64,000 nucleotides of DNA. Source: a phage. A program made the position numbers and the translations under genes. This document shows positions 37,271-49,324 of the stretch, piece by piece; within the stretch, counting starts at the first letter, position 1, and every line of letters begins with the position of its first letter. The stretch is taken from the NCBI GenBank assembly GCA_025830695.1, contig GCA_025830695.1_4111.2. One strand, given 5' to 3'. Under the pieces are notes generated by a model. The model did no database searches. It was not told where the DNA came from and was given only the letters and a program-made list of their open reading frames with translations.

Positions 37271-37510
37271 ATGGCTAAATCAAAAATGTTCTTAGGTCAC
37301 AAAAACAAAACTCATTGGAATGTAAGCCTTTGGATTAATAACGATGAATCATTATACCGGTTGGCCCAGGACTTTATTAACGATAGCACTAATCGCAATG
37401 ATGCGGCCCGTCATATGATGTTATTTTTAGAACAGACTGGACAAGATAAAACACCGGACGGATTCAAATATAGCACTACTGCGATCCGTGCGGCGATGGT
37501 TGGAATGTAA
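37271..37510 (+). CDS. hypothetical protein (79 aa), paralog of 38509
   Basis: ATG after TAAGAGG SD. Confidence 0.6.
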   Translation: MAKSKMFLGHKNKTHWNVSLWINNDESLYRLAQDFINDSTNRNDAARHMMLFLEQTGQDKTPDGFKYSTTAIRAAMVGM

Positions 37511-37595
37511 TAGAATTTATTTAAAGTACTATCATTTTTTGCGATAGTACTTTATAATAGTGTTTTATTCATACACCAACGATAAGGGCAACAGC

Positions 37596-37859
37596 ATGAA
37601 TATTAAGTATTTTGCGACGCGTGAACAAGCTCGGATCGCCGCACGCCAGGACGGGGCAACGTTTAAAGATATGGGCGTACAATCGGAACGTGGTAAACGT
37701 TGGGCCATTGTAAAGCGTAGTACAGCCAGATCATTACAGTACTGGCTATCAGCTTTAAAAAGTCCTGCTAGTGTATCGCGACGAGTGGTAGAAATAAAGC
37801 TCGACCGTAAGGGGAATCGTGTTACCGTGTACCGTACTAAAAAGATAGCAGTACTATAA
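37596..37859 (+). CDS. hypothetical protein (87 aa), paralog of 48929
   Basis: Shared FATRE..ARI.AR and DRKGNRVTVY motifs. Confidence 0.55.
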   Translation: MNIKYFATREQARIAARQDGATFKDMGVQSERGKRWAIVKRSTARSLQYWLSALKSPASVSRRVVEIKLDRKGNRVTVYRTKKIAVL

Positions 37860-37867
37860 AAAAAGTA

Positions 37868-37926
37868 CTTGCAAACTAAGTTTAAAAGCGTATAATACTT
37901 TATATCAGGTGGGGAATAGTTCCCCA
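37868..37926 (+). promoter_or_regulatory. PeSL-like cassette
   Basis: TTGCAA 37868-73, TATAAT 37890-95, hairpin GTGGGGAATAGTTCCCCAC. Confidence 0.65.
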
Positions 37927-37946
37927 CTAAAGCAAGGAGTAAAAAA

Positions 37947-38177
37947 ATGACCAATATGTATATGACTGAAGTTAAAACCGTAAAAGATACTACCACTAAT
38001 AAAACTACTTACTTACAGCGGATCTGCGGTGTATGGCAACGTATCAGCAAATCAAAGTACTTTAAATTAACATCATATGCCAATCGTTCGGATTCATTCA
38101 GTACTGAAATAAAAGGTAATAAAGTACACCAATACGGCACTTATTATTATTACAGCCTGGACGCGATTGCAGTATAA
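37947..38177 (+). CDS. hypothetical protein (76 aa)
   Basis: AAGGAG SD. Confidence 0.6.
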   Translation: MTNMYMTEVKTVKDTTTNKTTYLQRICGVWQRISKSKYFKLTSYANRSDSFSTEIKGNKVHQYGTYYYYSLDAIAV

Positions 38178-38207
38178 GCAGTTTACAAATCTTTACAATT
38201 GCCGGTA

Positions 38208-38236
38208 TTGACTTATTTTGTCAGTACTGGCATAAT
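38208..38236 (+). promoter_or_regulatory. promoter (TTGACT-17-CATAAT) driving ORF-free leader with CCCATAGGGTGC element
   Basis: No ORF before next cassette. Confidence 0.45.
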
Positions 38237-38351
38237 GTATTCATTGGCAGATAAGCCGTAGCCCATAGGGTGCGGGAGTGTATCTATAGAAAAATTAGTT
38301 TAGTACAGTTACAATTGTGCACCCGGTGGGTTAGCTGTTGTCATGGGGTAT

Positions 38352-38380
38352 ATTATGCCAGTACTTGATAATGCTGTCAA
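38352..38380 (-). promoter_or_regulatory. minus-strand promoter (TTGACA-17-CATAAT), convergent with 38208
   Basis: Reverse complement of 38352-38380; transcript would carry CCCACCGGGTGC. Confidence 0.45.
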
Positions 38381-38424
38381 TACTTTTTTAATATTCAGTA
38401 CTGAAAACTATTTTTAAAAAGTAC

Positions 38425-38486
38425 TTGCAAACTAAGTTTAAAAGCGTATAATACTTTATATCGAGGCGGGGGAATGGTTCTCCCGC
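38425..38486 (+). promoter_or_regulatory. PeSL-like cassette
   Basis: TTGCAA 38425-30, TATAAT 38447-52, hairpin GCGGGGGAATGGTTCTCCCGC. Confidence 0.65.
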
Positions 38487-38508
38487 TCAATTAAACGAGG
38501 ATTTAAAA

Positions 38509-38748
38509 ATGGCTACTACTAAAACTTACAACGGGCACAAAAACAAAACTCATTGGAATGTTTCATTGTGGATTAATAACGGTGAGTCATTATATCGGCT
38601 TGCTCAAAGTTGCATCGCACAATGTAAAACTAAAGATATTGCGGCCCAATGTATGTACCGCAGATTAAAAGCCAACGGTACTACTACAACACCGGACGGA
38701 TTCAAGTATAGCACTACGGCGATCCGTGCTGCAATGGTTGGAATGTAA
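38509..38748 (+). CDS. hypothetical protein (79 aa), paralog of 37271
   Basis: Shares GHKNKTHWNVSLWINN and PDGFKYSTTAIRAAMVGM. Confidence 0.6.
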   Translation: MATTKTYNGHKNKTHWNVSLWINNGESLYRLAQSCIAQCKTKDIAAQCMYRRLKANGTTTTPDGFKYSTTAIRAAMVGM

Positions 38749-38804
38749 CATTCAGTACTGAATCAATGGCGGGTGTGGTTCCCGCCTTTACTGAGGATTA
38801 TCTA

Positions 38805-39092
38805 ATGAGCAAAGTAATTGACTATAAAGTGTTAACCAAATCATTGTCAATCAGTGAGTGCACCGATGGCTTTTGGATGTACGATGAAACGCGTGGCATG
38901 AATTTAGCCTTAAGAGCGAAAACGGCTGAGGCGGCGTATGTGCAAGCCCTGGAATACTACCAGGAACGTCTAAAGGAAGTTGAAAACAATTATCAGAATC
39001 TCAAAGAGAAAGTAGATAATTTCGTCGGTCAATTCGTTGACGATGACGAGGAAGACGGGCACTATTGTAACCGTTGCGGATCTTACAATTAA
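38805..39092 (+). CDS. hypothetical protein (95 aa)
   Basis: ATG after GAGGAT SD; 5' hairpin GGCGGGTGTGGTTCCCGCC. Confidence 0.55.
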   Translation: MSKVIDYKVLTKSLSISECTDGFWMYDETRGMNLALRAKTAEAAYVQALEYYQERLKEVENNYQNLKEKVDNFVGQFVDDDEEDGHYCNRCGSYN

Positions 39093-39109
39093 GTACTGAG
39101 GATTATCTA

Positions 39110-47835: not shown

Positions 47836-47849
47836 AAATATTTGAAAAA

Positions 47850-47875
47850 GGGATTGACTCCGGTCAGTCCCTTTG
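47850..47875 (+). terminator. intrinsic terminator variant GGGATTGACTCCGGTCAGTCCC + TTTG
   Basis: 8-bp stem; TTGACT in stem ~17 nt upstream of TATTAT. Confidence 0.7.
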
Positions 47876-47933
47876 CTATTATATACGCATAGAAACAAAT
47901 CAGCCCACAGGGTGCATAAATGTATCTATTGTT

Positions 47934-47941
47934 TGCTGGTG
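47934..47941 (+). other. Chi-like octamer GCTGGTGG
   Basis: Intergenic, after conserved CCCACAGGGTGCAT element. Confidence 0.45.
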
Positions 47942-47973
47942 GCTAGTACTGAAAACTATTTTTAAAAAAGTAC

Positions 47974-48039
47974 TTGCATTGTACTTAGAATCAAGTATAA
48001 TGTTTTACATCAGGACGGGGAACGAAACAAGTAACCCCG
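47974..48039 (+). promoter_or_regulatory. promoter (TTGCAT-16-TATAAT) + leader hairpin ACGGGG...CCCCGT
   Basis: First of two tandem promoters for 48151 gene. Confidence 0.55.
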
Positions 48040-48089
48040 TTAAGTAGTCCAGGAGTAAGACATACGAAAAACTCCCCTGATAAAATAGT

Positions 48090-48117
48090 TTGACAATAGA
48101 AAGTAAACGAGTATAAT
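48090..48117 (+). promoter_or_regulatory. promoter (TTGACA-16-TATAAT)
   Basis: Second tandem promoter upstream of 48151. Confidence 0.6.
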
Positions 48118-48150
48118 ACTTACATCAACCACTGATAAGGAAACATTAAA

Positions 48151-48426
48151 ATGCGGATTCTACTGACAGCTAACGAAATCGAACAAGTACTGACTACTAA
48201 CCTGGAAGACTGGAAACGTGAAGCAGATATCCAGGCGGTTCAACTGCTTAACGATAAGTTAACGCCGGATGACTTAAGCAAGATTGTAGATCCTCAATTC
48301 TACGAAGATATTCACGACACCGCGTTAAGCGTCGAGGATGTACTTGATAAGCACTACATTGATATTGATTTGCAGGTTTACGGTCGTAAAAACTTTATCA
48401 CTATTCACGACATTTATAATAATTAA
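48151..48426 (+). CDS. hypothetical protein (91 aa)
   Basis: AAGGAAA SD. Confidence 0.6.
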   Translation: MRILLTANEIEQVLTTNLEDWKREADIQAVQLLNDKLTPDDLSKIVDPQFYEDIHDTALSVEDVLDKHYIDIDLQVYGRKNFITIHDIYNN

Positions 48427-48429
48427 GTA

Positions 48430-48487
48430 TTGACAAAGTATCTTAGTACTGTATAATAGTTTACATCAAGGGGGGAATGGTTCCCCT
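48430..48487 (+). promoter_or_regulatory. PeSL-like cassette (TTGACA-16-TATAAT)
   Basis: Hairpin GGGGGAA-TGG-TTCCCC. Confidence 0.65.
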
Positions 48488-48509
48488 CCTAACAAAGAGA
48501 GAAATAAAA

Positions 48510-48833
48510 ATGGCTATGATCCTTACCCAGAAAGTAGAACTGAAAATTGTAACCTCCTTTGACATTAAAGTTAATCGGTGGACTGATTCACACGGCAATA
48601 CTTACCACTCTTGCTACGTGTCTGCATTGATTGGTGATCGTTGGGAAGACCTGGGACATGAAACCTTTACATACGGTTACGGTACGCAAGGCGAATACAC
48701 TGGTTTGGAGATCATTAAAGAAACCGTTATAGGTTTCAACCCGAAAGAAAAAGTTATTCACCGCATCGAAAAAGAGATTAACAAAGAAATAACAGTTCGC
48801 TACTACGATGTAAAACGTAAGAAAGACATGTAA
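48510..48833 (+). CDS. hypothetical protein (107 aa), paralog of 42366
   Basis: Shared NRWTDSHGNTYHSCYVS and TFTYGYG. Confidence 0.6.
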   Translation: MAMILTQKVELKIVTSFDIKVNRWTDSHGNTYHSCYVSALIGDRWEDLGHETFTYGYGTQGEYTGLEIIKETVIGFNPKEKVIHRIEKEINKEITVRYYDVKRKKDM

Positions 48834-48855
48834 TAGAATCCATTTAAAGTACTAT

Positions 48856-48884
48856 TTGACATTGCCCAGATAGTACTTTATAAT
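48856..48884 (+). promoter_or_regulatory. promoter (TTGACA-17-TATAAT) flanked by AGTACTAT/ATAGTACT inverted repeats
   Basis: Degenerate copy upstream of paralog at 37596. Confidence 0.55.
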
Positions 48885-48928
48885 AGACTCTAACTTGTAG
48901 TACTAACTTAACTAATAGGATGTATACC

Positions 48929-49324
48929 ATGATTACTAAATTCTACGCTACCCGTGAAGCTGCCCGTATTGTTGCACGCGAGGAAGGAGCAGCATTTAAA
49001 GACATGGGCAAAGATGCACCGAAAGGTCAACGCTGGGCCGTACAGTTCAAAGAAATCTCTGATATCGTGAATTCACCGGAGCCAGTACTAACAGCAGCAG
49101 AACTAAAACGAGCGGATTTACTGGCGTCAATACTTGATGCACAAGATGAGTTTATCGCTGATTCTGATATCAAAGTACAGACAAACCATACCGCTTGGAC
49201 TCACGCGGATCACCTGGCAAACCTTAAGCGTCCAAGTGAACTGGTACGCAACCAGAAAGAGATCCGACACGACCGTAAGGGTAATCGTGTAACAGTATAT
49301 AGTAAACGCCGCCAGGTTATCTAA
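48929..49324 (+). CDS. hypothetical protein (131 aa), paralog of 37596
   Basis: Shared N- and C-terminal motifs. Confidence 0.55.
   Translation: MITKFYATREAARIVAREEGAAFKDMGKDAPKGQRWAVQFKEISDIVNSPEPVLTAAELKRADLLASILDAQDEFIADSDIKVQTNHTAWTHADHLANLKRPSELVRNQKEIRHDRKGNRVTVYSKRRQVI

Follow-up and report, generated by a model that had tools for sequence, protein, structure and literature searches.

The DNA analysed here, called the window throughout, is a 64,000-nucleotide (nt) stretch of a phage genome (GenBank assembly GCA_025830695.1, contig GCA_025830695.1_4111.2). On its plus strand, positions 35086-54600 hold a block of about 40 small genes, some 35 of them with their own sigma-70-type promoter cassette. 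We consider it likely that this block is an early-gene array in which the cassettes serve mainly as recombination joints for the gain, loss and swapping of small genes. Where close relatives differ by an indel, the junctions mostly fall within cassettes, and chimeric cassettes are left behind. The block also holds three pairs of small paralogous genes (A1/A2, B1/B2 and C1/C2), which a sequence-only reading had taken as direct evidence that promoter-plus-gene modules move as units. A cassette plus its gene is indeed the unit of change; the three pairs, however, are not direct evidence of it, and the promoter is more often the joint than the cargo.

Megablast of positions 37000-49500 places the window in Asteriusvirus, the 121Q/PBECO4-like jumbo coliphages. 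This segment matches 171 phage records, the best being BF17, vB_Ec-M-J, SP27, CRJP21, G17, 121Q and PBECO4 at 90-96% identity, and Asteriusvirus coverage of it is patchy, with 3-14 aligned pieces per record. Window position 35086 is the first position of the BF17, vB_Ec-M-J and CRJP21 records. Positions 1-21525 of the vB_Ec-M-J record are annotated as direct terminal repeats, and the relative fEgEco12 has a 20,993-bp terminal repeat confirmed by restriction mapping (PMC13070987). From these record starts and repeats, the region containing the three pairs lies within a terminal-repeat block at ~35.1-54.6 kb, the counterpart of the Asteriusvirus direct terminal repeat, with its right end (~54.6 kb) extrapolated rather than read. 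Nearly all genes of the block are annotated as hypothetical in relatives, as judged from the open reading frame (ORF) list and the relatives' annotation. Comparisons below are with six relatives: BF17, vB_Ec-M-J, SP27, CRJP21, G17 and 121Q.

Promoter cassettes of the terminal-repeat block

A repeat search recovers one family with 23 copies of at least 57 nt, and further, overlapping families. Between 36 and 50 kb, about 35 plus-strand sigma-70 matches agree with 10-12 of the 12 hexamer positions at spacers of 16-17 nt; overall, 81 sigma-70 promoter-like sites were found against 47.8 expected. The cassettes are 60-110 nt long, share one orientation and recur every 300-500 bp, with dozens in the block. 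They are intergenic and stand before small hypothetical genes, in a region with patchy coverage among relatives. A uniform scan for the cassette grammar finds 20 in the block and 0 in shuffled sequence. Promoter activity is predicted from this close fit to the sigma-70 consensus.

Aligned on the -10 hexamer, the cassettes fall into three designs. Type I (about 25 copies) runs from an A/T tract through AGTACT, a -35 hexamer (AAAGTACTTGCAA or TTGACA; TTGCAA or TTGACA in the general layout) and a 16-17 nt spacer, often ending in CAGTACTG, to TATAAT. There follow GTTTTACATC (GTTTTACAT in the general layout), a 7-10 bp G/C hairpin, CACTA or CTGGTAA, a Shine-Dalgarno (SD) sequence and ATG. The hairpin begins 10-13 nt past the -10 and is predicted to form the 5′ end of the transcript, where it may stabilise the messenger RNA or attenuate read-through. 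Folded individually, 23 of the 25 cassettes folded inside the block give hairpins of -10.6 to -17.9 kcal/mol. Their stems differ in sequence (GCGGGAA/TTCCCGC, GTGGGGAA/TTCCCCAC, GGGGAGAA/TTCTCCCC and others) and the loop, GAAT(A/G)GTTC, is conserved; the loop motif GRAAWRGTTCYCC is found 16 times where 0.5 is expected, without exception on the plus strand and inside a cassette. A MAFFT/RNAalifold consensus of the leader hairpins recovers only 4 pairs, the stem register varying between cassettes; the evidence for the hairpin is that of the individual folds, and covariation is meant qualitatively.

Type II (six copies) has AGTACTAT and ATAGTACT on either side of the -35 and no leader hairpin. 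The window has six instances of the arrangement AGTACTAT-N(5-30)-ATAGTACT where 0 are expected, each around a -35 region, and one of the six is the promoter of the gene at 42366. Because the gap between the arms varies, from 11 to 21 nt, a stem-loop is a better reading of the repeat than an operator bound by a dimeric repressor, which would be a protein site of fixed geometry. In type III the -35 lies within a hairpin, GGGATTGACTCCGGTCAGTCCC, and TTTGCTATTAT comes next. Searches of Rfam (E up to 1) and with ARAGORN returned nothing relevant, either for 34-55 kb or for the whole window.

Two further elements were seen alongside the cassettes. A composite terminator-promoter motif, with -35 TTGACT inside a perfect hairpin (AAAGGGTTGACTTCGGTCAGCCCTTTTTGC TATAAT), recurs at 2330-2362, 12962-12994, 14244-14276, 44150-44185, 47847-47882, 50845 and 53112, some of these sites lying outside the terminal-repeat block. 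Seven copies of an ORF-free element of ~60-160 nt (36324, 38259, 44209, 45894, 47901, 50901 and 53163) share an invariant core, AGGGTGC..TGTA.C, and six of the seven lie directly behind a promoter-like sequence of their own. For the long copy, 38243-38402, the predicted folding energy is -48.9 kcal/mol (z=-2.9). With no Rfam or tRNA match, these elements are candidate phage small RNAs.

Indel junctions among relatives

Junctions were read from dynamic-programming chains of BLAST pieces, overlaps allowed, between the window and the six relatives. About 20 distinct indels or replacements emerge. Most involve a single gene with a single cassette, and the overlaps at the junctions measure 13-93 nt. 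The overlaps arise where a relative has an extra module and both of its flanking cassettes align to a single cassette of the window:

37187-37254: overlap of 68 nt, directly upstream of A1; extra module in BF17 and vB_Ec-M-J
38412-38462: overlap of 51 nt, upstream of A2; extra module in a relative
48424-48516: overlap of 93 nt, upstream of C2; extra 183-nt gene plus cassette in five of the six relatives
51287-51359: overlap of 73 nt; extra module in a relative
53248-53309: overlap of 62 nt; extra module in a relative

The converse pattern, a module specific to the window, is seen at 39300-39533, 43527-43683, 45836-46156, 49698-49914 and 51874-52162.

A cleanly resolved crossover accompanies the loss of an acetyltransferase gene:

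46431-46922, plus strand: cassettes 46431 and 46841 flanking the GNAT acetyltransferase gene 46488-46844

The gene is missing from BF17 and G17, where the junction joins 46441 to 46862 and 3 nt stand in place of 420 nt in the window. Both relatives have a single chimeric promoter that follows the left cassette of the window up to TTGACAGTACT and the right cassette from AGTAGTGTTATAG on, which places the crossover within the -35/-10 spacer.

Strict cassette intervals cover 22% of the block and contain 24 of 39 breakpoint sites (binomial p=1.3e-7), these sites having been merged from earlier greedy BLAST chains, with which most of the dynamic-programming junctions coincide. Three of the 39 (37266, 37846 and 37949) are artefacts of greedy chaining, still located at cassette edges. 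Several sites outside the intervals are only 4-15 nt from a cassette or lie in a promoterless hairpin-plus-SD element. The greedy chain had also suggested that A1 and B1 were replaced in BF17 and vB_Ec-M-J. This was rejected, as tblastn shows both genes present; in the dynamic-programming chain the real event is the insertion of an extra gene and cassette upstream of A1.

Segments inserted in relatives were sought elsewhere in the window, and most have no counterpart there. One clear gene case is 40110-40346, which in 121Q occupies another cassette slot, behind a promoterless hairpin element, with homology beginning at the hairpin and not at the promoter. The other case is the long-leader element 47996-48135. 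This cassette variant, present also at 40850-40975, consists of a promoter, a hairpin and a leader of ~100 nt free of ORFs; it is 90% identical to a segment in another slot in 121Q, upstream of the A2 site (locus L006, 3019-3161), and other relatives have a similar long-leader segment at the slot upstream of A2.

Two local details of the block were also noted. At 43221-43259, within a gene and not at a cassette, a stretch of 37 nt in the window corresponds to 143 nt in each of the six relatives, and the window shows two overlapping ORFs here (43091-43261 and 43149-43472); probably the window has undergone a deletion of its own that breaks up a gene. Two consecutive genes, 38806 and 39110, have a 20-nt direct repeat, ACTGAGGATTATCTAATGAG, over the SD and start codon (38786-38808 and 39093-39115), and a BF17/vB_Ec-M-J breakpoint (39049-39052) falls near it.

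Three paralog pairs and their promoters

The six genes were correctly delimited by the sequence-only reading, in their starts and in the end coordinate, and coding sequences of the same lengths are annotated in relatives:

37271-37510, plus strand: gene A1, 79 amino acids (aa), DUF7249/phrog_871
38509-38748, plus strand: gene A2, 79 aa, DUF7249; present in BF17, vB_Ec-M-J and SP27, absent from G17, CRJP21 and 121Q
37596-37859, plus strand: gene B1, 87 aa, phrog_8127; short paralog without the central 44 aa
48929-49324, plus strand: gene B2, 131 aa, phrog_8127; long form
42366-42689, plus strand: gene C1, 107 aa, phrog_6246
48510-48833, plus strand: gene C2, 107 aa, phrog_6246
49347-49375, plus strand: intrinsic-terminator-like hairpin GGCGGGATCAGTTCCCGCC then TTTTTT, after B2 and separate from the cassette hairpins

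BLASTP of each pair bears out that they are true paralogs: A1 and A2 are identical at 52 of 79 positions (66%, E=6e-38), B1 and B2 share 35% identity with a 44-aa indel (E=2e-19), and C1 and C2 share 37% (E=6e-28). In an all-against-all comparison they are the only paralog pairs within the cassette-rich block. Pfam gives DUF7249 alone for family A and no match for B or C, and the PHROGs families are all of unknown function.

Searched with the six proteins by tblastn, all six relatives have B1, B2, C1, C2 and A1 at syntenic positions, and three have A2. Orthologs are 85-100% identical in aa sequence, against 35-67% between paralogs; the exception is the gene in the C1 slot of SP27, a diverged allele at 34% identity. 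The pair duplications are thus ancient, older than the genus, and non-coding flanks of that age no longer hold the original breakpoints. RaK2, K64-1 and Erwinia phage Hallingskeid each have one full-length copy of family B; on this distribution B2 probably keeps the ancestral length, B1 being a shortened derivative.

Each of the six genes follows its own promoter cassette, as had been claimed, that of B1 being degenerate. The cassettes concerned, with one neighbour, are:

37185-37270, plus strand: A1 cassette, type I; AAAGTACTTGCAA (-35), 16-nt spacer, TATAAT, GTTTTACATC, hairpin GTGGGGAATAGTTCCCCAC, SD
38418-38508, plus strand: A2 cassette, type I; recombination junction at 38462-38476 in all six relatives
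37862-37946, plus strand: mosaic type I cassette; first 45 nt as in the A2 cassette, hairpin part as in the A1 cassette; drives the unrelated gene 37947-38177
37511-37595, plus strand: B1 cassette, degenerate type II; AGTACTATC (37525) / GATAGTACT (37543), -10 TATAAT at 37553-37558, no -35 hexamer
48834-48928, plus strand: B2 cassette, type II; AGTACTAT (48848), TTGACA (48856), ATAGTACT (48870), TATAAT (48879); 12 of 12 consensus positions
42275-42365, plus strand: C1 cassette, type II; CAGTACTAT-TGACATAGTTTG-ATAGTACTG around -35 TTGACA, TG-extended -10 CATAAT, no hairpin
48425-48509, plus strand: C2 cassette, type I; TTGACA, 16 nt, TATAAT, hairpin GGGGGGAATGGTTCCCCTCC

All 35 cassettes were ranked against each other. 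Out of 34, the partner's cassette ranks 1-3 for pair B, 2-3 for pair A and 24-31 for pair C; partners are mutually closest roughly for B, and not for A or C. The pair alignments proposed earlier, run here with 250-nt flanks, show homology ending at cassette and gene boundaries, in pairs so old that neutral flanks would have been erased anyway. Breakpoints unrelated to the cassettes, which would have spoken against modules, were not found: paralog homology ends at these boundaries and the relatives' indel junctions lie inside cassettes.

Inverted repeats do flank both promoters of pair B, as the sequence-only reading had it (AGTACTAT 37525-37532 / ATAGTACT 37544-37551 and 48848-48855 / 48870-48877); they mark the class of six type II promoters and are not particular to this pair. 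What is particular is a signature, TGTAATAGAATnnATTTAAAGTACTAT ... GATAGTACTTTATAATAG, found at both pair-B promoters in the window and in all six relatives and lacking from the other four type II cassettes, so the likeness of the two promoters stands. It spans the stop codon of the preceding gene to just beyond the -10. About 42 of 44 positions agree in these promoter flanks (~95%), well above the 35% coding identity, so that later promoter-to-promoter conversion, or constraint, explains the likeness equally well as co-duplication. The B1 cassette has only 9-11 nt between its arms and no -35 at a usable distance, this copy having lost it, and no 5′ hairpin is predicted for it (-4.5 kcal/mol).

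For pair A, homology begins at the 5′ edge of the cassette and ends at the stop codon. Both cassettes belong to a local subfamily of four consecutive ones (36725, 37185, 37862 and 38418), and the nearest cassettes, 36754 or 37891 for A1 and 37891 for A2, all drive unrelated genes. For pair C the designs differ, type II before C1 and type I before C2, and the C2 cassette is 87% identical to cassette 51280, which drives an unrelated gene.

The paralogs may instead be xenologs, acquired separately from other phages and inserted at cassettes; this is quite possible without being the probable account. A1 is 83-95% identical in aa sequence to genes of Phapecoctavirus, of Vequintavirus and of a 42-kb phage, and A2 is only 66% identical to A1; family A occurs in 289 phage records, and A2 in just three of the six relatives. 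Family C is found as single copies, at ~36% identity, in ~150-kb coliphages. Family B, however, is limited to RaK2-like jumbo phages save for weak partial hits, and its short B1 form is seen only beside B2-bearing genomes, which fits internal duplication. The C copies, 37% identical to each other and 36-39% to outside homologs, are uninformative.

Duplication of a promoter-plus-gene unit within the genome, with promoter likeness as the relic of each event, was the original suggestion and now seems rather unlikely. It draws on the private pair-B signature, present in all seven genomes, on the start of pair-A homology at the cassette edge, and on family B being single-copy in RaK2-like outgroups and two-copy in Asteriusvirus. 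Against it, the pair-C cassette types are unrelated, and each pair-A cassette is nearer to a neighbour driving an unrelated gene, one such neighbour being a mosaic. Paralogs at 35-66% identity beside pair-B flanks at ~95% are a poor fit to neutral co-divergence, and synteny of all but A2 in every relative puts any duplication event before the genus. In the reading we prefer, with cassettes as joints, the three pairs would be old products of the cassette system or separate acquisitions through it, and their present promoters would owe as much to later exchange and homogenisation of cassettes as to the original duplication.

Outside the block, three large tandem paralog arrays lack promoter cassettes:

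54659-61000, plus strand: ~25 genes of ~70 aa
30834-34441, plus strand: a set of genes of 60-87 aa
18266-30525, minus strand: ~10 genes of ~400 aa

Cassette recombination and related systems

In the mechanism we propose, nearly every small gene would be its own expression unit on a common promoter-hairpin layout. Non-allelic cassettes, in one genome or in two co-infecting phages, would recombine and so delete, insert or replace one gene and one cassette-equivalent per event, and every product would retain a working promoter. The junctions occupy varied positions, some at the 5′ edge, others in the spacer, past the start region, or between SD and ATG, and we therefore infer homologous exchange rather than the action of a fixed-site enzyme.

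A site-specific enzyme, such as a homing-type nuclease or a recombinase, that moves modules by recognising the hairpin or AGTACT is an improbable alternative. AGTACT is 12.5-fold over-represented and flanks both promoter hexamers, the loop sequence of the hairpin is conserved, and site-specific recombination was left open by the authors who described the promoter-early stem-loop (PeSL) cassettes of T4-like phages (PMC4122927). Yet the junctions fall at many cassette positions, with overlaps from 13 to 93 nt, and AGTACT is enriched window-wide, including coding regions on both strands, not just at junctions. That promoter likeness is functional convergence on the sigma-70 consensus, implying neither shared ancestry nor recombination, is very hard to credit: selection alone would keep the consensus hexamers, spacing and SD common to all cassettes, but identity covers positions without known constraint such as the spacer AAACTAAGTTTAAAAGCG, reaches 45 of 45 nt between cassettes 37862 and 38418 and 87-96% in the pairs 48425/51280 and 43456/43685, and discrete switch points lie inside cassettes, where the relatives' junction overlaps also fall.

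The AGTACT palindrome itself occurs 275 times in the whole window, where 21.9 +/- 4.3 are expected, at 3-32 per 4 kb across all 64 kb. In cassettes it stands directly 5′ of the -35 and directly 5′ of the -10 (examples at 37187, 37525, 37546, 38397, 39583 and 48848), and TTCAGTACTGAA is frequent at gene ends. Phages usually avoid 6-bp palindromes. A literature search in which subscription journals were thinly covered found no published account of this enrichment.

Several points weigh against cassettes as recombination joints. The promoters and hairpins are predictions, and since the type I hairpins have no T-run, a terminator role like that of PeSLs is doubtful for them. The order of the three pairs is kept in all six relatives, none of the six genes being observed to move, and changes away from cassettes occur at 39052, 42618 and 43221-43259. 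BLAST alignments, moreover, run through any similar cassette, which biases junctions toward cassette edges, and the exact crossover is known in clean cases only, such as the GNAT deletion.

The closest described system is that of the PeSL cassettes in the T4-like phages RB49/phi1, PST/T4 and nt-1/KVP40 (Arbiol et al. 2010, PMC2839356; Comeau et al. 2014, PMC4122927). Like PeSLs, the cassettes of the block combine a sigma-70-like early promoter and an A/T-rich upstream tract with a stem-loop whose position varies by subclass, types I-III corresponding to the described subclasses (PMC2839356). In both systems the cassettes separate small genes of unknown function within a hyperplastic region, cassettes delimit the indels by which close relatives differ, chimeric cassettes remain at such sites, and each exchange amounts to one gene plus one cassette. 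Here, however, they belong to a ~350-kb RaK2-like jumbo phage outside the T4 group, and the array fills a direct terminal repeat. The dominant subclass has its hairpin in the 5′ leader, with the loop GAAT(A/G)GTTC and no T-run, AGTACT flanks both hexamers, and the unrelated Phapecoctavirus has the layout too, along with a gene 88.6% identical in nt sequence. PeSLs are further marked by measured promoter and terminator activity and by excised mini-circles with one gene and one chimeric cassette; for the Asteriusvirus cassettes, promoter activity is predicted from sequence.

For the RaK2-like phage vB_PcaM_CBB, 18 RpoD-like early promoters are listed (Buttimer et al. 2017, PMC5259590). As far as the searched text of that paper goes, these too are sigma-70-type promoters with UP-like elements, clustered before short hypothetical genes and reaching into a ~22-kb terminal repeat; a keyword search of the text brought up no hairpin, cassette repeat family or gene-shuffling role.

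The pre-early region of T5-like phages is likewise a direct terminal repeat with many small host-takeover genes behind strong host-type promoters; to our knowledge, it has no repeated promoter-hairpin cassette family and no cassette-bounded indels. Our literature search, with the same thin coverage of subscription journals, found no description of PeSL-like cassettes for Asteriusvirus, RaK2-like phages or Phapecoctavirus. Modular shuffling of the PeSL type is already known from T4-like phages, and what is new here is the phage group.

Sharing reaches beyond the genus. An A1-type gene is present in more than 150 phages outside Asteriusvirus, and at window positions 37213-37515 A1 is 88.6% identical in nt sequence to a gene of Phapecoctavirus phiWec188. 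This match begins at the -10, takes in the hairpin loop and SD, and ends 5 nt beyond the stop codon; the -35 and spacer are unrelated. The Vequintavirus match to A1 covers the coding sequence only; the gene that precedes A1 in the window has a match of its own, which ends at that gene's stop codon. Cassettes of phiWec188 read TTGACA, 17 nt, TAAACT or TAAGAT, GTATTACATAGGG, a G/C hairpin with a GGAATGGT loop, SD and ATG. The uniform scan finds nine of them in 8.2 kb of phiWec188, beside the 20 of the window block, 19 in BF17 and 16 in 121Q, against 0-0.05 in shuffles. We suggest, tentatively, that the promoter/5′-hairpin/SD layout, including the loop GAAT(A/G)GTTC, may be a common adaptor for early-gene exchange between Asteriusvirus and the ~150-kb Phapecoctavirus, with A1, joined at the -10, as an example caught in the act; the AGTACT excess might belong to the same recombination or regulatory system.

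Because the cassettes recombine independently of the genes they drive, similar promoters before paralogs neither date nor delimit a duplication here. Recombination at cassettes would give a mechanical reason why, of all parts of Asteriusvirus genomes, the terminal-repeat early region varies most. In annotation and phage engineering, the block offers about 35 predicted strong early promoters and natural "slots" at which small genes may be added or removed without breaking expression. Cassette shuffling, so far documented only in T4-type phages, would thus extend to RaK2-like jumbo phages, and possibly to exchange between genera.

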